A program made the translations under genes and the position numbers. Shown here one piece after another: positions 12 through 57,897 of a DNA stretch of 64,000 bases. This stretch comes from Escherichia phage N2. The notes beneath the pieces are model-generated. The model was not told where the DNA came from and searched no databases. It worked only from the letters and a program-made list of their open reading frames with translations. The first letter of the stretch is position 1. Every line of letters begins with the position of its first letter. The stretch is from sequence record ON645936.1; one strand, given 5' to 3'.

Positions 12-2189
12 TTAGGCCGCAAGGGCCTTCATAGTTTTAGCGATTTGGGAAACTTCATCATCACTTAAAGAGTTGCGATAACCGATGAAGTCGGAAACAA
101 TACGGAATTTCTTGGTAAACTCAGCAACCATTTTATCACTGTTTTTTGAAGCATTATTTGATAATACATCAAAAAGATTAGTTACTGTCCAGATGTCATG
201 ACCGATGGTATCTTTTCCACCGTTGAAATATACACCCTGTAATGAACTAACCATATTAGCGAGTCGTGTATATTCTTCAGAAACTTCATCTACGCTGAAG
301 TACTTCATCATAAAATCTAACTCAGGATACTTGATAATTTTATCAATATATCGTTTAGCTGAACTTGAATAACCTACATACTTATCATAATCTACATCAT
401 CAAAAGCATCTACATATAAATCACGCAGAGTTTCAAAAATACATTGGCACTGACCAAGTTCTTTTACCTTTTTCTGTAAAAGCGGACGAATAACATAAAA
501 TTCATTAATGCCAATAAGATTAGCTATACGAATCAAAATATTCGTAGATGGATGACAAAGCGATGTAGTACCATCCATAGAGAAAATATCAGAACGATGC
601 ATGTATGCTACATAACCAGTAATTTCATCTGCTTCTGATGTGAGCGTAAATAGTTCCTCTTTTTCCCAGCGCCCGTCTTTAATTTCAAACTTAAATGCAG
701 TAGCAGCTTTAGGACGAGGAGCTGTACTTTTTACTGCCTTTGGAATATAACTTTTAACTAAAGCTTCAATTTCTGACAAATAATGAATGTTAACTTCATC
801 ACTTTCAAACATTGCCATAATATCAGGGAGTAAATCAATCTGTGATTCTACTTCCGGATTAATAAACAGAAGACGCTCATTGTGATGAATATTTAAGGTG
901 TTATTAAATTCACTATCATCTAACGCGCGTGCTAATCCACGGACAATATTAACACGATTTTTAGTATTATCAATAACAATATTAATTTTTGTCGTATTAA
1001 TACCAAACAGACGATAGCTTGACGCAACGGCTGAAGTTTCATGGCTTTGCTTAATGCGTTTCAGTCGAGGGTCAAGATTTACTTCATACACAACTCCTGC
1101 ATTGCACAACTTGCTGTCAGGTTCAAACATGCTCTGCATCTTTTTATATGATAGATTTTTAGTCGTAAATTTGACTGAATTACTAATCATATAATCTCGA
1201 GCAGAATATCCCATCTTCATCAATTCACGGTATGTATGACGAGGAGATGTAGATTCTTTAAATCGTTTTACATCTTCATTGAATGCCTTCTCACTAAGCT
1301 CTTTAACACGCTCAATAATATTTTTACGAGTACGATCATCTAGTGAAAGAGCCTCACGCGATGGAGCAATATCAAGTGAACCCATTGGAAACTTAATGTA
1401 ATTCACTTCATTGCGAATGCTTAACCAGTTACGGTCTCTAATGACACCATCAATAGGATAAACAATACCACCATAGATAGCATACAATCCACCACGATCT
1501 GGCCAGTATCTTTCTGGATTTACGCCGTAATAATCATCAAAATCCGGAAAATAATCAATTTCGCGGTCAAGACCATTAATGATAGCCAAATCTTTGAATG
1601 GTCGCATGATATAGGAAACTTCATAAGCAAAGTTTCTAAAGTCTTTTTCTTCAACTGGAACTACGATTTCAATACCAGTTTTATCGTCTGGACCCATTTC
1701 TTTTACGAATGTAGGTTTAATCTGCGGACCGTCACCATCCATATAAGCTACATAACCGCGAATTTCACCTTTATGGTACGAAGTAATACTAAACGTATCA
1801 GTATAACTAAACGGAGATTTAGAACCTAAACCAAATCCACCAATGAAATCGTTAGATTCAGCCTTAGATGAACTGAAGTATGAATTATACAACCCAGGAG
1901 AATTATCATCACCCTGAATATCAAAATCGCTCATACCCGGACCAAAATCTCGGCAAACAAATCGCGGATCTAATCGTCCTGGAACTTGAATGATAAATTT
2001 TTCATGATTTCCATTGAGAGCATGGGCATCAATCATGTTGGTAATCAATTCACGTACTACTGCGCGAATCTTGTTTGTATACAAATCAGATGATAGAATT
2101 TTAAATACTTTAGGAGATGCTGTGATGCTAAATGCTTTTGATTTAGAACCATTACCAAGAATTGTTTCTTTTTCAGTGGTGATAATCAT
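12..2189 (-). CDS. rIIA: rIIA protein (GHKL-ATPase-like N-terminus)
   Basis: 725-aa ORF, ATG start; N-terminal [10 protein letters not shown] / GFGLGSKS motifs; size and position as T4 rIIA. Confidence 0.85.
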
Positions 2190-2457: not shown

Positions 2458-4275
2458 CTACTGGCTCATCCATTCTTTACGAAGGTCAGCATTATCTCCC
2501 ATGAGCATTTCAAAAAGCTCTTTCCAGTTCTCAGGAAGTTTAACAACATCATATACTGGGTTTTGAATCATCTCACGATATTCAGATTTTTCCAAAGAGC
2601 CAAGTCCTTTAATATAACGGATGCTATGTTTAGGTAGAGCATCTTTGGCACTCTCATATTCAGCGACTGTATAAAACCATTCTTGTTTTTTACCGACCTG
2701 AGCGATGATTACAGGAGTTTTGACAAAGCGAATTCTTCCTTGTTCAAACAATTCTGGCCAATTACTAAAAAATCCGAGCAGAGAAGGATAAATGCTTCCT
2801 AGACCATCGTGGTCAGCATCAGTCATAATAGCAATATTATGATAATTCAAGTTTTCAGCTTTTTCACCAAGAACTAATCCAGTGATTGCGCAAATATCAA
2901 ACAGTTCTTTGTTTTTAAGCATATCAGCATATGACATACCCCAACTGTTGAGAACTTTACCACGCAATGGATAACCGCCATGAAGTTCTTTATCGCGAAC
3001 ATCAATAAGATATCCGATAGCAGAATCACCCTCAGTCAAGAAAAGAGTAGTGTCAGCATCTTTACCGCAAAGATTCGCTTTAATATGTTTATGAACCTTA
3101 GCTTTAGAGGCCTTTTTAGCTGCTTTAGTTTCTGCTGCTTTTTCTGCCGCCAATTTACGAGCCAAAGCAGCTTCAATGATTGGCATTAAAATTGCTTCAT
3201 TATTTAAAATAGCACGTGAAATCTTTTTAGCATCAAGCTGAATATGACTACGAATTTCACCAAATGGAGAAGTCAAACGCTCTTTAGTTTGAGAATCAAA
3301 TCGCATGTTTTTCATATCACGAACAAACATAACGATAGTCAAACATTCTTTAACACGTGCTTTAGTTACATCAATTTTGAATTTACGTTTGATTTGTGGA
3401 ATAAGGTCTTCACAAATATCATCCATAACGCAGTCAATATGATGGCCACCATTCTTAGTATGAATGTTATTGACGTACGTTAATTGACGAAAACCATCCG
3501 GCGAACGACCAACCGCAATAGAACAGTTTTCTTGTTCTTGAACGATAGCATGCTCATCATATTGGCGTGCGTATTTCTTAAAATTACCCTGAACCTTTTT
3601 ACCATTAAAGGTAAATTGAATATCAGGATAAACTACTGCAAGTGTCTGGAGACGATCCAGTGTAATGTCAAGATAAACTTGAGATAGCTCATTAGTTTCA
3701 AATGACATAAAATCAGGAATGAAAGTAACGCGAGTTCCTTTCCATTTTCCAGGAATATCTTCCCACGATTTATTTTCCATGCCGTTTGAACAACGAACTA
3801 CAATATTATTTTGACCGTCGCCAGTTTCACCGACAAACATCACAGAAAAAATGTTAGTTAAACTAGAACCAACACCATTCATACCACCGGTGACGCGTTC
3901 TTTATCATCACCAAAGTTACCACCTGCTTTTGGAATAGTCCAGGCAGCAACTGGACCAGGAATTTCTTCACCAGTAGGTGTTTTAACCATCGCCTGTGGA
4001 ATACCACGACCGTTATCTTCAACTGTTACTTGATTGTTTTTGATAGTAACATTAATTTTATTTGCGAATTTAAACTTAGTACGAATACCTTCATCTACTG
4101 AGTTATCGATAATTTCATCAATAAGCTTAACAAGACCAGGTACATACTGAACACTTTCCCATTTACCAAACAGAAAGCGCTCATGCATTTCATTAGCAGA
4201 AGAACCAATGTACATGCCGCTACGCTTTTTGATATGTTCAATATCGCTCAGAATTTTAATTTCATTCTTAATCAT
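2458..4275 (-). CDS. 39: DNA topoisomerase II large subunit, contiguous (GHKL ATPase + TOPRIM)
   Basis: 605 aa from ATG at 4275; NSVDEG ATPase and EGDSA TOPRIM motifs in one ORF. Confidence 0.85.
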   Translation of the reverse strand: MIKNEIKILSDIEHIKKRSGMYIGSSANEMHERFLFGKWESVQYVPGLVKLIDEIIDNSVDEGIRTKFKFANKINVTIKNNQVTVEDNGRGIPQAMVKTPTGEEIPGPVAAWTIPKAGGNFGDDKERVTGGMNGVGSSLTNIFSVMFVGETGDGQNNIVVRCSNGMENKSWEDIPGKWKGTRVTFIPDFMSFETNELSQVYLDITLDRLQTLAVVYPDIQFTFNGKKVQGNFKKYARQYDEHAIVQEQENCSIAVGRSPDGFRQLTYVNNIHTKNGGHHIDCVMDDICEDLIPQIKRKFKIDVTKARVKECLTIVMFVRDMKNMRFDSQTKERLTSPFGEIRSHIQLDAKKISRAILNNEAILMPIIEAALARKLAAEKAAETKAAKKASKAKVHKHIKANLCGKDADTTLFLTEGDSAIGYLIDVRDKELHGGYPLRGKVLNSWGMSYADMLKNKELFDICAITGLVLGEKAENLNYHNIAIMTDADHDGLGSIYPSLLGFFSNWPELFEQGRIRFVKTPVIIAQVGKKQEWFYTVAEYESAKDALPKHSIRYIKGLGSLEKSEYREMIQNPVYDVVKLPENWKELFEMLMGDNADLRKEWMSQ

Positions 4276-4292
4276 CACTTATCCTCGTTTGG

Positions 4293-4329
4293 TTTCGGGA
4301 ATATTATACTCCGGTAATCATAAAGCTAA
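4293..4329 (-). promoter_or_regulatory. possible MotA-box middle promoter upstream of topoisomerase gene
   Basis: minus strand TTAGCTTTA-N12-TATAAT. Confidence 0.3.
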
Positions 4330-4345
4330 AGGCCCGAAGGCCTTT
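4328..4345 (-). terminator. GC-clamped tetraloop hairpin overlapping stop codon
   Basis: GGCC-UUCG-GGCC on minus RNA; T-run follows on plus strand. Confidence 0.45.
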
Positions 4346-4605
4346 TATTTAAAACGGATAGTCGAATCCTTGAAGAATAGACCAGAACATACTGTTCCTT
4401 CTACTTTCTGCCCGGTAGGTCCAATAGCACGAAATCCAGTGTGTTGGAAATCATTTTCAGAACAACCAAACCAATTGTATCCAGTGATTTCAATATTAGT
4501 AAAACCACTTGAAGACAAAACTTTGGTTGCATTATCAGCATCAGTACATCCTACTAAAGATACTGCTAATACTAATGCCGCGATAGAACGATTAACATAT
4601 TTCAT
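4345..4605 (-). CDS. small lipoprotein
   Basis: signal peptide ending LVGC lipobox; start moved to MKYVNRS. Confidence 0.5.
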   Translation of the reverse strand: MKYVNRSIAALVLAVSLVGCTDADNATKVLSSSGFTNIEITGYNWFGCSENDFQHTGFRAIGPTGQKVEGTVCSGLFFKDSTIRFK

Positions 4606-51921: not shown

Positions 51922-52641
51922 TTAGGATTCTTCTAAATGTCTTTTCTGAAAAGTTGATACCATACTACGATACGGTTCATTTGGATATCCGTGTTTTATA
52001 GCTTCCTTTGTAAATTTTCTCCATCCATATTTAGTTTCTTTCCAAAGCTCGAATAATTCATCTTCATACTGCCATATAGTTAAATGAGAACGCTTTGCAG
52101 CTTTAATTCCATTAATATGCTTTTCTTTTACTGCAGGATTGCTTAGTTTCTTTTTAATAATATTACTAACTTTTCTAACAAAAACTGGGTCCTTATATCG
52201 TTGCGAAGTTTTTATTGAAGTGTTTAATTTAGCTTCCGGCGTGGATGTAACCTCTTTCATCTTTTTCTTCATATGCTGTATATGATTAGGATTTTTCCAT
52301 AAATTTATAGAATGCTTTTTGCATTTTATCCTAGTTTCATCTGCAACCTTTCCTCCTTCACCCCCGTATGACAGGTTAACACAGTTTTTTCCATATTTCA
52401 ATTTACCTGCCATGATATATAATATTTCAGCTTGTACCATTTTATCATAATTATCAAAAACTTCTAAAACCGTTTTTGATAATATGTGGTCATTTGACAC
52501 TTTTACACGTTCTATATAATTTCCACTACCAACATACGAATCATTGATGTTATTAGTTATATGTCGACCATAATAGTATTTCTTAATACCTGTCTTTAAA
52601 TTTAATATTTCAGTTTTATAGATAGTAAAATATTTTTTCAT
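51922..52641 (-). CDS. GIY-YIG-like homing endonuclease
   Basis: 239 aa; FTIYKTEI...YYYGRH...YVGSG; basic C-terminus. Confidence 0.5.
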   Translation of the reverse strand: MKKYFTIYKTEILNLKTGIKKYYYGRHITNNINDSYVGSGNYIERVKVSNDHILSKTVLEVFDNYDKMVQAEILYIMAGKLKYGKNCVNLSYGGEGGKVADETRIKCKKHSINLWKNPNHIQHMKKKMKEVTSTPEAKLNTSIKTSQRYKDPVFVRKVSNIIKKKLSNPAVKEKHINGIKAAKRSHLTIWQYEDELFELWKETKYGWRKFTKEAIKHGYPNEPYRSMVSTFQKRHLEES

Positions 52642-53732: not shown

Positions 53733-54218
53733 TTATTCCATTTCTACTATATGCATGTTCTTTTTGCTATCAAAATATATGTTTTTAACTATTAACTCAG
53801 AATTAATTGGCAGTAAAAACTCTCTTTCATAATCTACCATACAAAGATTATCATAAAGCTTGTTAAGCTTATCATCGTCAGTTTGGCCAGATTCTTCAAT
53901 TGCGATTAAATTTTCTAAAATGTCAATCATGGCAGTCGAATAGTCGAAAACGTTTGCATTTTTTAACACTACTAAAACATTAGTCATATAGCGTTCTGCC
54001 GCAAACGTTTCAGCTATATGAGACTCACTGCTAAAGGAAGTTATTCTTTTAAATTTGATTCTCCTATTAACTTCAAACTTATAAGATAGCACTTCCTCTA
54101 TTGTAAGTCCTCTAAAAAGTATGTCTTTAATCTCAAGTTTGTCTTTAATGTAATCATTAACACGCTTATGATTAAAATCATTAATTTTGTTGCCAAGGCA
54201 TTGCATTAAAATATGCAT
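53733..54218 (-). CDS. hypothetical protein
   Basis: 161-aa ORF bracketed by promoter and terminator. Confidence 0.5.
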   Translation of the reverse strand: MHILMQCLGNKINDFNHKRVNDYIKDKLEIKDILFRGLTIEEVLSYKFEVNRRIKFKRITSFSSESHIAETFAAERYMTNVLVVLKNANVFDYSTAMIDILENLIAIEESGQTDDDKLNKLYDNLCMVDYEREFLLPINSELIVKNIYFDSKKNMHIVEME

Positions 54219-54317: not shown

Positions 54318-54342
54318 AAAAAAAGGGAGCCCGAAGGCTCCC
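54318..54342 (-). terminator. intrinsic terminator after nucleotidyltransferase gene
   Basis: GGGAGCC-UUCG-GGCUCCC then UUUUUUUGUUU on minus RNA. Confidence 0.65.
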
Positions 54343-54344
54343 TA

Positions 54345-55358
54345 TCATTTATAATAACTTCGGTAGTTTTCAAGATAAACCCTCTCAAGGAAGTCATCCC
54401 AAAAACCCATGTCTACTTTTTGCTGCATACCGTTCTTAGAAGCTTCAATGGATGCTGCTTCTACTTGATCGACCACATCTTCCAAAAACTCTTGAACAGT
54501 TTTAAATGGGTGTTTACCCAGCTTCACGTCGAGAATAAATGGAGCGTCTTGAAGTGGATAAACCAAGTCACCAGTTTTGTAAATTTCCAATAGTTGGAGT
54601 CCACCACGACAAGCATGACTTAGAGCTTTCCAGTCAATGCCCTCATTCGCTTCAGCCTTACGAGCACGTTCGCCATATTCAGCATCAAGTTTATTCAAAG
54701 ACTGCTTAAGCTCAATAAGAGAAAGTGTTGTCTGATATTTACGACCCAACACGGTATAGAACATTTGCGGGCCTGTTTTCTCATGGTTATGGAATACCCA
54801 TTCACAGAACTCGTTTTCAGGGAGTCTGTGTTTGATATCTTCTACCTTAGTACGACGAAGTCTATCAGGGATTCCTTCTTGATAGTCGACCCACTGGTCA
54901 GGGATTTGATTAACTACTTTCAATACATCACGTAATGCGGCCAAACGAGAACCCTTGACACCGTATTTAGAAGCTTGCTTGCGGACATATCCTAAATAGG
55001 ATTTCATGTTAGTTGTATAAAACCGTGAACGATTGTCTTGGATAAATTTCCATACATCAGGCAAATCAGATTTAACCACTAGTTCAGGCGGAGTGTGAAG
55101 CATATCCAATGCTACAGTTTCACCATCTGCTGCTAATTTAAAGAAATACTTAAGACTGTACAGTTCATGGTCAATATCATCTTTGGTGTTTTTAGATGAT
55201 GTGTTGTTAGTGTTTTTACTCATATGCTCTTTAACATTTCCGATAAGAATATCGCGAGCAGGAGGAACAAAGATTTCTTTAAAATCTACATCAGATTCTG
55301 GAGTAGAAGTTCCATAAAGATGACTACCAAAATAGCTTTTCATTACTGTTTTCATCAT
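54345..55358 (-). CDS. pol-beta-superfamily nucleotidyltransferase-like protein
   Basis: 337 aa; N-terminal GSHLYGTSTPESDVDF (hG[GS]...DhD) motif. Confidence 0.55.
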   Translation of the reverse strand: MMKTVMKSYFGSHLYGTSTPESDVDFKEIFVPPARDILIGNVKEHMSKNTNNTSSKNTKDDIDHELYSLKYFFKLAADGETVALDMLHTPPELVVKSDLPDVWKFIQDNRSRFYTTNMKSYLGYVRKQASKYGVKGSRLAALRDVLKVVNQIPDQWVDYQEGIPDRLRRTKVEDIKHRLPENEFCEWVFHNHEKTGPQMFYTVLGRKYQTTLSLIELKQSLNKLDAEYGERARKAEANEGIDWKALSHACRGGLQLLEIYKTGDLVYPLQDAPFILDVKLGKHPFKTVQEFLEDVVDQVEAASIEASKNGMQQKVDMGFWDDFLERVYLENYRSYYK

Positions 55359-55816
55359 TCAGCCTTATATTCAATAACAGGACATACTTTAGCTTTACGC
55401 GCTTTTAAAAATTCGACGATAATAGATTTCTTGGGTTGAATAGGAGGTAAACCTTTATACGCCCTATCAATATTTTCTACATGTAAAGCATAATCCTTTT
55501 TCCATTTATAATCTTTATATTTTTCATGCAATTGTGCAGGAATAACAAATGAACCGATAATAAGTAAAACAAGCAAAATGGCAAGTATAAATGCTGCTGG
55601 AATAAGAGTCCATAAACTACCAAAAATAAGCCATTTCTGTATGATTTCTGCACAGATGATAGTTAGACCTGCGAGTATAGTACATCCGAAAAAAGAAACG
55701 AAAAATGTAGGAATAACAATAGACCAAAAATACGCGCATAGTGTCTTAGGTCGTTTCCATTCATCATTAAACATTTTGAATAATTTATAGTGCCAAGAGC
55801 TTTCATTAATAATCAT
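55355..55816 (-). CDS. integral membrane protein
   Basis: 153 aa with about three hydrophobic helices. Confidence 0.5.
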   Translation of the reverse strand: MIINESSWHYKLFKMFNDEWKRPKTLCAYFWSIVIPTFFVSFFGCTILAGLTIICAEIIQKWLIFGSLWTLIPAAFILAILLVLLIIGSFVIPAQLHEKYKDYKWKKDYALHVENIDRAYKGLPPIQPKKSIIVEFLKARKAKVCPVIEYKAE

Positions 55817-55818
55817 AA

Positions 55819-56340
55819 TTATCCTTTCATTGAAGGTGTAACAGTTGTTAAATACTTAATCATAGCTTCAGCTTCTGATTTTGATAATGAAATTTCTCCA
55901 TTGTTTTGACGAATAGAAATAAAATCCGGATGACGGTCACCACCAGCTTTCAAAACACACATATAAGTATCAGTTTCATCTTCAATATTTGAAATGATTG
56001 AAGCAGTTCCACATGAATGTGGTTTTTGATAAATCAATGCAGCTTTTCTTCCACCGTTTGACTGTTCATAAACTTTTAACACATCAAACAAATCACTTCT
56101 TTTATCAATAGCTAAGATGTTGTTTTCATCTTCAATGTTAAATCCTTCGGATACTTCATAAAGTGTCACCCATAAATCGCCTATATCGATAGTAGCATTT
56201 CCTTTTCCACAACTTTCAAGAGCATGACAAATTTTCTTGATTTCGTCATAACTCATTTTAATAATATCATCTCCTTGAATAAGGAAGATGTCATTTTTAA
56301 ATTCAACATGAATTAAACCACTTTCACTTGAAATAAACAT
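55819..56340 (-). CDS. hypothetical protein, paralog of 56347..56904
   Basis: C-terminal SLSKSEAEAMIKYLTTVTPSM. Confidence 0.45.
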   Translation of the reverse strand: MFISSESGLIHVEFKNDIFLIQGDDIIKMSYDEIKKICHALESCGKGNATIDIGDLWVTLYEVSEGFNIEDENNILAIDKRSDLFDVLKVYEQSNGGRKAALIYQKPHSCGTASIISNIEDETDTYMCVLKAGGDRHPDFISIRQNNGEISLSKSEAEAMIKYLTTVTPSMKG

Positions 56341-56346
56341 ATTTCC

Positions 56347-56904
56347 TCACTTTGAAATCATAGTTGGAATGACAGAATCAAGATAAGTCTTTAGCGCAAT
56401 AGCTTCGTCTTTGGTAAATGTGACAATATGTGATCGAAAATCATCAATTTGACGAATAGTTAAGACATCTCCCTCTTCATAACATTTTGATACATTTAAA
56501 AGAGTTTCATCATTCTGATTGCAATCGTTAGTAATAATAGCATTGCAATTTTTGAGCCATTTTAAACTATGTTTTCTTTCATTAGAATAATAAAAATATT
56601 TAATCTTATCTATAAAACTATCCCAATGAATAACTGATAAACACATTGACTCACTTTTAATATTAAATCCTGGGCATGAAGAATAAAAATGAATTTTGTG
56701 CTCATCATTGATGCTTACTATTTTATCAGTATAAGGATATTCAATTTGGATTAAATGAATGATTTCACTAGGCGTAAAATATAGCATATCGTCTTCTTGC
56801 GTCAAACGATACATATTATTTACTTTTTCTATAGCCAATTCACCAAAAAGCGGACTAACTTCTAATACTAATCGTTTCATATTGATTCTCTTCGACTCAC
56901 TCAC
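56347..56904 (-). CDS. hypothetical protein, paralog of 55819..56340
   Basis: C-terminal TFTKDEAIALKTYLDSVIPTM; GTG start. Confidence 0.45.
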   Translation of the reverse strand: MSESKRINMKRLVLEVSPLFGELAIEKVNNMYRLTQEDDMLYFTPSEIIHLIQIEYPYTDKIVSINDEHKIHFYSSCPGFNIKSESMCLSVIHWDSFIDKIKYFYYSNERKHSLKWLKNCNAIITNDCNQNDETLLNVSKCYEEGDVLTIRQIDDFRSHIVTFTKDEAIALKTYLDSVIPTMISK

Positions 56905-57039
56905 AATTACATACTCCTTTGAATAATATCAATAATGTTGTTCACTAGATTATAAGTAAACATTGGGTAATTATATTGAATCATCACATACACAGCAAAC
57001 AAAACTTTCATTCTCTTCTCCTTGGCAGTTGGCAAGATT

Positions 57040-57069
57040 ACTATACCATAACCTTGCCAACTTGTAAAC
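57040..57069 (-). promoter_or_regulatory. sigma70-type early promoter
   Basis: minus strand GTTTACA-N17-TGgTATAGT; -10 inside 10-bp inverted repeat. Confidence 0.5.
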
Positions 57070-57234
57070 CATTAAATGACGTTTTCAATAAAATTCTGGA
57101 GTTTTGTGTGAGCATCAACCATGATTTTCATTTCTTCCTTTGCGAAAGCTATGCCTCTTTCCCGAGAAGAACACTCATAGTCAGAAACTGCATTAGCATA
57201 TTCTTCAATTAGCTTCATTAAAAACATCTGCTTT

Positions 57235-57429
57235 TCAGTTTTCATTATTCCACCTAATCATTTCAAGATATTGAACTAACTTAGCTTTAGATTTATCCAA
57301 ATCCTTTTTAGCTGCTGCTATACCTTCGTATGAATATCCTTCACAGTGCTCAACTGCTAATTGATATGAATCTATTTCAATATCACGTGCTAATTTAATG
57401 ATTTTTTCAAACTGTTCACGTGTCAGCAT
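57235..57429 (-). CDS. hypothetical protein
   Basis: 64-aa ORF. Confidence 0.4.
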   Translation of the reverse strand: MLTREQFEKIIKLARDIEIDSYQLAVEHCEGYSYEGIAAAKKDLDKSKAKLVQYLEMIRWNNEN

Positions 57430-57431
57430 AC

Positions 57432-57650
57432 TTAAACTCTCGTATTATGATCGATAATTTCATCAAGAAACATATCTAAAGCTTCTAAAGCATTATCAAC
57501 TTTAGCTTCAAATTCTTCAATACTTGATAAGGCAAAGTTAATGCGTTCCTCATCTGCTTTGCGAATTAAAGCTACCAATTCTTTAATTTTATCTGCTTGT
57601 TCGATACTAATCATTATTCCACCACATATGAAAGAGAGAACATTGCACAC
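57432..57650 (-). CDS. hypothetical protein
   Basis: 72-aa ORF. Confidence 0.4.
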
Positions 57651-57870: not shown

Positions 57871-57892
57871 AAAAAAGTCTCCCGAAGGAGAC
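57871..57892 (-). terminator. intrinsic terminator
   Basis: GUCUCC-UUCG-GGAGAC then UUUUUUCAUUUU on minus RNA. Confidence 0.65.
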
Positions 57893-57897
57893 TAATG

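Follow-up and report, generated by a model that had tools for sequence, protein, structure and literature searches.

A diverged tandem pair of T4 MobD.1-family genes in an early-type operon of a T4-like phage, possibly encoding three-repeat, PUR-alpha-like proteins that work with a neighbouring membrane protein

Two adjacent ORFs encoding proteins of 173 and 185 aa are found within a compact group of genes in the window, namely the entire 64-kb stretch of phage DNA that was analysed. The features of this locus, all on the minus strand and presented from the predicted promoter onward, are as follows.

57040..57068, minus strand: predicted sigma-70/T4-early-like promoter preceding the operon, GTTTACA-17-TGgTATAGT (consensus scan, 10/12 plus extended TG)
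56907..57011, minus strand: MobD.2 homolog, 34 aa (phrog_3515, E=4e-22; alignment with T4 mobD.2)
56347..56904, minus strand: 185-aa paralog (upstream copy), GTG start; termed mobD.1a in ime09 and ortholog of T4 MobD.1 (Y05I)
about 56581..56871, minus strand: N-domain of the 185-aa protein
about 56359..56568, minus strand: C-domain of the 185-aa protein
56359..56421, minus strand: C-terminal motif of the 185-aa protein, TFTKDEAIALKTYLDSVIPTM, the family signature, in the predicted helix of repeat 3
55819..56340, minus strand: 173-aa paralog (downstream copy), ATG start; termed mobD.1 in ime09 and missing in T4
56050..56340, minus strand: N-domain (predicted repeats 1 and 2) of the 173-aa protein
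55822..56049, minus strand: C-domain (predicted repeat 3) of the 173-aa protein
55828..55890, minus strand: C-terminal motif of the 173-aa protein, SLSKSEAEAMIKYLTTVTPSM
55355..55816, minus strand: RB69ORF104c-like 2-TM membrane protein, 153 aa (phrog_944, E=1e-49; hydropathy)
54345..55358, minus strand: NrdC.11, an RlaP-family Pol-beta nucleotidyltransferase (PF10127, 43.9 bits, cut-off 23; phrog_388, E=9e-136)
54324..54343, minus strand: GC-rich hairpin and trailing T-run, directly behind the stop codon of nrdC.11 (terminator scan; stem of 8 bp, 6 of them GC pairs)

The genes for MobD.2, the MobD.1 ortholog, the 173-aa paralog, the 2-TM membrane protein and NrdC.11 follow one another in this order, separated by gaps of 2-6 nt (0-6 nt once the MobD.2-MobD.1 junction is included) or with starts and stops overlapping. 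The 185-aa gene's ribosome-binding site and start region overlap with the stop of mobD.2, the membrane protein gene begins 2 nt past the stop of the 173-aa gene, and the nrdC.11 start overlaps the stop of the membrane protein gene (ATGA). The promoter is near-identical in the window, T4, ime09 and T2, with the T4 version containing two substitutions, both in the spacer, and the hexamers being invariant. The hairpin at 54324..54343 likely corresponds to the end of the transcription unit. As judged from the sequence, both ORFs lie between a conserved, predicted early-type promoter and a predicted terminator. The GTG assigned as start of the 185-aa ORF is supported; T4 and T2 present an in-frame ATG at the same position, preceded by the same AGGAG. 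In some annotations, this gene begins at an internal ATG (56880), yielding a product of 177 aa.

A preliminary description of this DNA had presented the two ORFs as adjacent tandem paralogs lying next to a membrane protein gene. The coordinates and lengths it gave (173 and 185 aa; neighbour at 55355..55816) match the ORF list, and the pairwise alignment that it proposed as a check revealed similarity well above chance. BLASTP aligned residues 3-171 of the 173-aa protein with residues 16-182 of the 185-aa protein, i.e., essentially over full length, with 28% identity and E=2e-8. The Smith-Waterman score of the pair was 96 (z=12.4), whereas 2000 shuffles gave 31.3 +/- 5.2, with none scoring above 58. 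The low pairwise identity is the only point favouring a chance or compositional resemblance, or the idea that one of the ORFs is no real gene. Such a reading, to which next to no likelihood can be assigned, is refuted by the BLASTP and shuffle results, by the matching of both ORFs to the same two Pfam models with E values of 1e-21 to 4e-39, and by dN/dS values below 0.3; each ORF is, moreover, conserved across phages and preceded by its own ribosome-binding site.

The two C-terminal 21-mers share 9/21 residues, with a BLOSUM62 sum of 42, and the signature [FL][TS]K.EA.AL..YL..VIP[ST]M is kept across 23 aligned family members. The conserved C-terminal motif singled out earlier corresponds to the most conserved signature of the family, although the relatedness noted for the C-termini extends over the full length of the proteins. 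By contrast, the Cys-containing central region that had been listed as a shared feature comes down to a single aligned Cys (C110/C120), replaced by R or G in RB69-type homologs; the notion of a zinc or Cys motif was dropped, as the Cys columns are not conserved in the family alignment. A 1572-aa protein (P0055) with 12 weak matching stretches was judged to be a spurious, repeat-driven match rather than a family member.

The locus is 98.6% identical to that of Escherichia phage REP4, and the source of the window is a Tequatrovirus (a T4-like phage) with an ordinary genome. Both proteins match Pfam T4_y05I_N (PF24449; gathering score 24.9 bits), with 108 bits and E=4e-31 for the 173-aa protein and 133.6 bits and E=4e-39 for the 185-aa protein, as well as T4_y05I_C (PF24448; gathering score 27 bits), with 83.6 bits and E=1e-23, and 77 bits and E=1e-21, respectively. 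Both also match phrog_1502 (E=3e-80 for the 185-aa protein). Sequence comparison thus places the two ORFs, as a diverged tandem pair, in the T4 MobD.1 (T4_y05I_N plus T4_y05I_C) family. T4 MobD.1 belongs to the same family and has the same two-domain architecture; the 185-aa protein shares 86% identity with it, and the same promoter and mobD.2 precede both of these orthologous genes. The surroundings correspond to the position of MobD.1 in the tk-rI-mobD-nrdC early region of the Tevenvirinae, with synteny to T4, ime09, T2, JS09, JS10 and VR25. Whereas T4 contains one MobD.1 copy, with the HNH homing endonuclease gene mobD replacing the 173-aa paralog and the membrane protein gene, the window contains two, the arrangement common to some 430 other Tequatroviruses. 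The 173-aa type was detected by tblastn at >=80% identity in 433 phage records (approximately 430 Tequatrovirus genomes), and both genes are approximately 98% identical to their counterparts in hundreds of sequenced T4-like phages. No further family copies were found within the 64-kb window.

The MobD.1 family is already catalogued in Pfam and PHROG, such that the original observation is correct but ordinary. A literature search on mobD.1, y05I, the Pfam and PHROG accessions and nrdC.11 returned no functional study of the family, nor any target or phenotype for it. The database labels 'molybdopterin-guanine dinucleotide biosynthesis protein MobD', 'thioredoxin' and 'putative transcription factor' were set aside as name confusion or as unsupported.

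The preliminary description had also invoked duplication followed by divergence, as expected of host-interaction genes. Of this, the tandem paralogy stands, while recent local copying and gene-wide rapid adaptive divergence do not. The 173-aa type forms its own deep clade, being only about 28-30% identical to its neighbour and as distant from homologs in other genera as from the adjacent 185-aa protein, which rules out recent in situ duplication. The split between the two types is therefore ancient or, alternatively, the 173-aa copy was acquired from a divergent phage. Among Tequatrovirus orthologs, dN/dS values for both copies were 0.09-0.27, with no sign of gene-wide positive selection on either paralog; by this sequence measure, both are under purifying selection (dN/dS 0.1-0.3). 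Between genera, identity falls to 24-50% for the MobD.1 family and 31-52% for the membrane protein, as compared to 65-84% for NrdC.11, and loss, fragmentation, allele replacement and chimeras are all seen at the locus. The rapid divergence of the family and the membrane protein, together with this turnover, speaks in favour of a host-interaction flavour. The nrdC.11-mobD.3 region of T4 can be deleted in the laboratory (PMC9825161), and in one natural locus (L026) the family genes and the membrane protein gene are deleted together, with nrdC.11 being kept; both paralogs are dispensable, given these two deletions.

The membrane protein gene described as adjoining the paralogs was confirmed as such. 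Its 153-aa product contains two strongly hydrophobic segments (approximately residues 30-58 and 64-96) and two tails of net positive charge, with a pI of 9.3. Homologs were matched in five genera (E=1e-18 to 1e-57); overall, this membrane protein shows a pI of 9.0-9.7 and positive tails. In the loci found via the motif, a family member, the membrane protein and NrdC.11 appear in this order in 13/13 cases, and genomes of Mosigvirus, Dhakavirus, Gaprivervirus and Tegunavirus agree with this arrangement. Among 45 viral contigs bearing NrdC.11, 36 include a family member upstream of nrdC.11, with the membrane protein gene directly following or overlapping the family member in 35 of these 36 (the order is reversed in L067). 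Although nrdC.11 is found downstream of the family in all family-bearing loci of both samples (13/13 and 36/36), it appears without the family in 9/45 loci (L026, L049, L051, L053 and L058-L062), and many phages contain genes inserted between the membrane protein gene and nrdC.11. As gene order in the Tevenvirinae is kept by descent, synteny alone is weak evidence of a physical or functional link.

Structure prediction, also proposed earlier as a check, yielded a confident AlphaFold2 model of the N-domain of the 173-aa protein (pLDDT 91.4, pTM 0.82). The modelled topology is beta-beta-beta-alpha-beta4-alpha (E10-15, E17-22, E25-29, H31-43, E49-53, E56-60, E67-70, E75-78, H81-94), with a short first strand, and corresponds to that of the PC4-like/PUR fold class. 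The best Foldseek match in the PDB was to repeats I and II of human PURA (8chv_D; probability 0.99, TM 0.55, rmsd 5.1 A), albeit with a weak E of 0.015; SsgB (6slc), 3cm1 and the MRP structure 2gje followed with TM scores of 0.51-0.53, all with weak E values, and no PDB match to the N-domain model reached E <=0.001. Also among these matches were 2it9 and 2nvn, which we take to be of the PC4/Whirly-like fold class. In the BFVD viral structure library, only uncharacterised proteins were matched, and PDB sequence searches, run with both proteins as well as with the family profile, gave no match at an E cut-off of 1 or 10. Sliding-clamp matches of the full-length model (rmsd ~24 A, TM <0.2) were dismissed as artefacts of the poorly modelled C-domain.

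For the C-domain, pLDDT was only approximately 45-60, so that the case for a beta4-alpha fold in this region comes from its homology to repeat 1 and from low-confidence secondary structure. When repeat 1 was compared with the C-domain using hhalign, a probability of 92%, E=5e-7 and a score of 32.8 were obtained, the column-shuffled null being 8.3 +/- 1.7 (maximum 14.8). Repeat 2 showed no similarity detectable by hhalign to repeats 1 and 3 (E=0.09 and 0.2, respectively), such that its status as a repeat is based on the model's structure only. There is, accordingly, moderate support for each protein comprising three predicted beta4-alpha repeats, with repeats 1 and 2 forming a putative intramolecular PC4/PUR/Whirly-like 'type I' domain, and likewise moderate support, from profile comparison, for homology between repeat 1 and repeat 3, the C-terminal domain with the helix motif. 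Stand-alone C-domain proteins of 69-87 aa exist, fHe-Yen9-01 gp119 being one example of a stand-alone C-domain, with the C-domain appearing without an N-domain in Tegunavirus, Citrobacter phage Merlin and Klebsiella phages. The family is mostly acidic (pI 4.1-5.8, apart from two stand-alone members at 6.7 and 9.2; net charge -7 to -11), with QEDD and NIE.E motifs being conserved.

A beta4-alpha unit such as that predicted here is characteristic of the PUR-alpha/PC4-like class, which includes Whirly/PBF-2, MRP1/2, PC4 and Borrelia Bpur. Within the type I/type II classification of PC4-like domains, PUR-alpha is the only protein known to contain both types, its repeat III forming an intermolecular 'type II' dimer, and heterodimers of PUR-alpha and PUR-beta through repeat III are conceivable (PMC7549692). 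The MobD.1 family resembles PUR-alpha in that repeats 1 and 2 are predicted to form a type I domain and in that the third repeat is homologous to repeat 1. Still, the phage proteins are acidic and the likeness derives from predicted structure (best E=0.015). Pfam PurA was not matched at E up to 1, nor were PDB chains by the family profile at E up to 10, and the MobD.1 family should therefore be considered as analogous to or very remote from PUR-alpha, rather than as a member of that group. The SsgA/SsgB sporulation cell-division proteins, with a Whirly-like fold, offer a further structural comparison (6slc, TM 0.52; 3cm1, TM 0.53, rmsd 3.8 A). SsgB, an acidic protein, works by contacting other proteins and not nucleic acid, which fits the charge of the MobD.1 family. 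SsgA and SsgB are, however, single-domain actinomycete trimers, with neither a third repeat nor a membrane protein partner gene, and share no sequence similarity with the MobD.1 family.

Considered together, these observations suggest a reading, held at a probability of about 0.4, in which the diverged MobD.1 tandem encodes PUR-like three-repeat proteins that would pair through repeat 3, dock on the tails of the membrane protein and so form an accessory module. Repeat 3 would have to pair with another copy, in the manner of PUR-alpha repeat III or single-repeat PC4-like proteins, giving rise to homodimers or, where two paralogs are co-expressed, possibly to heterodimers. The constant evolutionary unit would be repeat 3 together with the adjacent membrane protein, in which case the acidic, soluble dimer would most probably act together with the basic cytoplasmic tails or dock on them. 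The dimer and the membrane protein may then make up an early, dispensable module of accessory nature whose target belongs to the host or a competitor, and the two paralogs would differ in binding specificity by virtue of their N-terminal domains; any link to RNA-end repair by NrdC.11 would be positional and optional. The retention of an intact MobD.1 in T4 without the membrane protein gene counts against this reading.

That same T4 arrangement favours another idea, in which the MobD.1 proteins would be free-standing acidic inhibitors or mimics, similar to Arn or Ocr in mode of action or to SsgB in fold. Without any part being played by the membrane protein, they would bind and inactivate a soluble protein of the host, for instance a defence factor that binds nucleic acids, and each paralog would be aimed at different host variants. 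Although rather doubtful, this idea draws on the acidic composition, the early-type promoter, dispensability both in the laboratory (T4 deletion, PMC9825161) and in nature, rapid divergence between genera, the swapping of 47%-identity alleles at the same Tequatrovirus slot, and the appearance among the structural matches of SsgB, which shares the fold class, is acidic and binds protein. It leaves unexplained, however, why the C-domain and the membrane protein gene are invariably adjacent even where the N-domain is missing; neither PADLOC nor anti-defence families were matched, and dN/dS offered no signal of gene-wide positive selection.

It is unlikely that the proteins instead serve as ssRNA/ssDNA-binding cofactors of NrdC.11, holding damaged tRNA or RNA ends for 3'-nucleotide addition in a counter-defence against anticodon nucleases. 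PC4/PUR-like folds do typically bind single-stranded nucleic acids (PMC7549692), RlaP enzymes, to which T4 NrdC.11 has been assigned, extend damaged RNA 3' ends by 1-2 NMPs and so restore tRNA function (PMC12776372), a role for RlaP in phage RNA repair has been proposed (PMC7824862), and nrdC.11, in the same tightly packed operon, lies downstream of the family wherever both were sampled. Yet, as in the RlaP-associated RNA repair loci (RtcB/RtcA/RlaP), an RlaP nucleotidyltransferase gene is present in the operon but, judging by ORFs and Pfam, no RNA ligase, end-healing enzyme or kinase-phosphatase accompanies it there, and RlaP homologs are widespread without the MobD.1 family. An obligate partnership is ruled out by L026, where the deletion spares nrdC.11, and by the other family-less nrdC.11 loci; the genes inserted before nrdC.11 in many phages and the far greater conservation of NrdC.11 also weigh against the proposal. 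Moreover, the family is acidic, in contrast to the nucleic-acid-binding members of the fold, which are basic; as far as composition can tell, this speaks against binding of ssDNA or RNA by simple electrostatics. The same acidity and the dispensability of the genes make a role as DNA-binding transcription factors regulating phage or host promoters very improbable. The Pfam label 'y05I-like putative transcription factor', apparently given for fold resemblance only, and the inclusion of the transcription-linked PC4, Whirly and PUR-alpha in the fold class (PMC7549692) point in that direction, but no match to a DNA-binding Pfam family, be it HTH, zinc-finger or another, was obtained at E up to 1 and the literature search lent no support.

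The preferred reading, that of repeat-3-paired proteins docked on the membrane protein, could be extended. [quoted passage not shown] In this full form, the proposal is a long shot. What the analysis would provide is a testable model of PUR-alpha-like proteins with three beta4-alpha repeats, in which the C-terminal motif lies in the helix of a putative dimerisation repeat, and, in the unit of repeat 3 and the 2-TM protein, a concrete partner to test for an uncharacterised T4 early gene.

The window corresponds to a T4-like phage genome of ~35% GC, with genes on the minus strand. Over 55300..57100, identity to Escherichia phage REP4 is 98.6%, and 499 phage records, nearly all Tequatrovirus, match this region. 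Here, two adjacent ORFs of 173 and 185 aa and a neighboring membrane protein gene lie exactly where the preliminary description had placed them, within the early region tk - rI - mobD.x - nrdC.11 - nrdC.10.

Features in and around the paralog locus
51922..52641, minus strand: free-standing homing endonuclease, 239 aa (phrog_314, E=1e-30)
53733..54218, minus strand: extra 161-aa gene between nrdC.10 and nrdC.11
54324..54343: strong hairpin terminator after nrdC.11, perfect, GC-rich, scoring on both strands
55355..55816, minus strand: membrane-protein gene
55819..56340, minus strand: downstream paralog, 173 aa
56347..56904, minus strand: upstream paralog, MobD.1 ortholog, 185 aa
57040..57068: conserved promoter-like element, GTTTACA-N17-TGgTATAGT
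57072..57245, minus strand: mobD.2a (Pfam DUF7438, E=7e-14)
57235..57429, minus strand: mobD.3 (Pfam DUF7438, E=3e-16)
57432..57650, minus strand: mobD.4 (Pfam DUF7438, E=1e-11)
57876..57893: perfect GC-rich hairpin after rI.-1, scoring as a terminator on both strands

The unit is compact, running from the promoter-like element through MobD.2, the 185-aa gene, the 173-aa gene, the membrane gene and nrdC.11 to the terminator, with gaps of 6 nt between the paralogs and 2 nt between the 173-aa and membrane genes, and an ATGA overlap at the membrane gene/nrdC.11 junction. The two hairpins bound the transcription units of the region. Immediately upstream of the pair, mobD.2a, mobD.3 and mobD.4 form a second tandem paralog family. 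The 161-aa gene has a hit in the C-terminal portion of phrog_832, 'RNA polymerase ADP-ribosylase' (E=1.4e-23), with no match in Pfam; it is found with the same annotation in T2 and is absent from T4 and ime09. The start of the homing endonuclease gene overlaps the nrdC.10 stop, a site different from that of T4 mobD.

Both ORFs matched Pfam PF24449 (T4_y05I_N; E=4e-31 and E=4e-39 for the 173- and 185-aa proteins, respectively), PF24448 (T4_y05I_C; E=1e-23 and E=1e-21) and phrog_1502, Y05I being T4 MobD.1. The 185-aa ORF is the T4 MobD.1 ortholog (86% identity), preceded, as in T4, by the promoter-like element and the 34-aa MobD.2 gene. Its GTG start codon is replaced by ATG at exactly the same place in T4 and T2, supporting the 185-aa reading. 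By contrast, the 173-aa ORF is without counterpart in T4, where the HNH homing-endonuclease gene mobD fills the place of this and the membrane gene (PMC2988022). Proteins of the 173-aa type, at at least 80% identity, are encoded in 433 phage records, two copies being the usual arrangement. Public labels are misleading: the MobD.1 ortholog appears as 'molybdopterin-guanine dinucleotide biosynthesis protein MobD', a mix-up with the T4 gene name mobD, a T2 fragment as 'prohead core scaffold protein', the 173-aa gene in one record as 'putative SSB protein', and 'thioredoxin' has been propagated for nrdC.11 and nrdC.10.

The proposed paralogy was borne out by BLASTP, which aligned the proteins near end-to-end (28% identity over 177 columns, E=2e-8). 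Locally aligned, they score 96, as compared to 31.3 +/- 5.2 (maximum 58) over 2000 shuffles (z=12.4), leaving chance similarity with next to no credence. The related C-terminal 21-mers reported earlier are both present, sharing 9 of 21 residues, and constitute the most conserved signature of the family. The 'Cys-containing central region' was, however, reduced to a single aligned Cys, in a column holding R or G in other members. As to duplication followed by divergence, the genes are indeed tandem paralogs, but a recent local duplication is ruled out: the 173-aa type, joined by a 55%-identical T2-like variant, sits on its own deep branch and shares 27-30% identity with its 185-aa neighbor, likewise with Mosigvirus, Dhakavirus and Gaprivervirus homologs. 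Either the duplication is ancient or the 173-aa copy was acquired from a divergent relative.

Both paralogs are under purifying selection among Tequatrovirus orthologs, with dN/dS values of 0.13-0.19 for one copy (0 in one near-identical pair) and 0.06-0.27 for the other; values for the membrane gene and nrdC.11 were 0.06-0.27 and 0.06-0.12. Comparison across genera shows much greater divergence in the family (24-50% identity) and the membrane protein (31-52%) than in NrdC.11 (65-84%). The family is narrowly distributed: its profile yielded 29 matches among 1.84 billion representative proteins, and tblastn found it in 729 phage records, all from T4-like phages of Enterobacterales. The matches include stand-alone C-domain proteins of 69-87 aa from Tegunavirus, Citrobacter phage Merlin, and Klebsiella, Serratia, Raoultella and Erwinia phages. 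A 1572-aa protein (P0055; repeat motif ...CDSIVTTVLTV...) with 12 weakly matching stretches (E=3e-12 overall) was judged a repeat-driven false positive.

The locus is also plastic. In T2, both paralogs are in fragments (L003 2552..3519); phage KMB40 has an RB69-type allele (46% identity) in the upstream position, divided between two CDS (L011 1998..2595); and a 179-aa protein (P0011) is a natural chimera of an upstream-type N-half and a 173-aa-type C-half. The MobD.1 genes are, moreover, dispensable. In one Tequatrovirus locus (L026), mobD.2a, mobD.2, the MobD.1 gene(s) and the membrane gene have been lost as one block, such that mobD.3 (3320..3520) abuts nrdC.11 (3504..4514), and T4 tolerates deletion of its nrdC.11-mobD.3 block (PMC9825161).

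AlphaFold2 modeled the full-length protein confidently for residues 1-95 only; the N-domain alone (pLDDT 91.4, pTM 0.82) was predicted as beta(3-4)-alpha-beta4-alpha. Its top Foldseek match in the PDB was human PURA repeats I+II (8chv_D; probability 0.99, TM 0.55, E=0.015), followed by further representatives of the PC4/Whirly-like fold class: SsgB 6slc, 3cm1, 2gje (the guide-RNA-binding protein MRP) and 2it9/2nvn, which are likewise placed in this class. As no PDB match reached E=0.001, assignment of the N-domain to this class is of moderate strength and does not denote homology. The C-domain was poorly modeled, as five short strands and a helix bearing the conserved motif, yet is detectably homologous to repeat 1 at the profile level (hhalign probability 92%, E=5e-7, score 32.8 versus 8.3 +/- 1.7, maximum 14.8, in 100 column shuffles), so that each protein appears to consist of three beta4-alpha repeats. 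In the PC4-like framework, paired repeats form a 'type I' intramolecular domain, as MobD.1 repeats 1 and 2 would, while a lone repeat requires a partner ('type II'); PUR-alpha is the only protein known with both, and might heterodimerize with PUR-beta via repeat III (PMC7549692). By analogy, dimerization would be expected of the C-domains, possibly as heterodimers where both paralogs are co-expressed. Residues 15-37 of the 173-aa protein (56230..56298, repeat 1) matched Pfam DUF7189 below threshold (E=4.7e-5, 24 bits versus a cut-off of 27), and a distant metagenomic T4-like contig (L008) carries two DUF7189 genes (989..1189 and 1543..1707) just upstream of its family gene; DUF7189 is a possible single-repeat relative.

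The adjacent membrane protein, with homologs in five genera (E=1e-18 to 1e-57), has two hydrophobic spans and net-positive tails with two conserved Cys, the charge indicating that both tails are probably cytoplasmic. NrdC.11 was identified in a Pfam search as an RlaP-family nucleotidyltransferase, a group that adds nucleotides to damaged RNA 3' ends and in which T4 NrdC.11 has been placed (PMC12776372). The order family member, membrane gene, NrdC.11 was seen in all 13 viral loci found by motif. A family member was present in 36 of 45 viral contigs with a NrdC.11 relative, full-length where NrdC.11 is at least 76% identical and C-domain-only at 62-69%, with the membrane gene following directly in 35 of the 36 (the order is reversed in L067); the most distant NrdC.11 group has neither gene. 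This pattern makes the C-domain and membrane protein the invariant pair. Two tandem C-domain-only genes in three contigs (L039 1971..2478, L042 1970..2477, L054 2015..2460) indicate that tandem duplication recurs in the family. The link to NrdC.11 is looser: across the 45 contigs its gene is often separated from the pair by inserted genes, and it persists in L026 after deletion of the pair. That the paralogs serve as RNA-binding helpers of NrdC.11 is accordingly improbable, despite the conserved order.

Acidity runs through the family, with pI values mostly of 4.1-5.8 and QEDD and NIE.E as conserved motifs; for the window paralogs the net charge is -11 and -7. Such composition speaks against both simple nucleic-acid binding and the Pfam label 'putative transcription factor', and neither paralog matched a DNA-binding family in Pfam, making a transcription factor very unlikely. 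That the proteins act as free acidic inhibitors of some host protein is also unlikely, though slightly less so than the NrdC.11 helper role. The reading we prefer, at a probability of about 0.4 when taken as a whole, is that the proteins are acidic, soluble, PUR-like dimers, in which the C-terminal repeat would both mediate dimerization and act as the conserved partner to which the 2-TM protein presents its basic cytoplasmic tails; together with that protein they would form a dispensable early accessory module, and the divergent N-domains of the two paralogs would offer different binding surfaces.

The genes and their family already have catalogue entries, and hundreds of genomes share the tandem arrangement. 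What may be added are two modest new hypotheses, namely, that these proteins are three-repeat and PUR-like, and that the C-domain pairs with the membrane protein.
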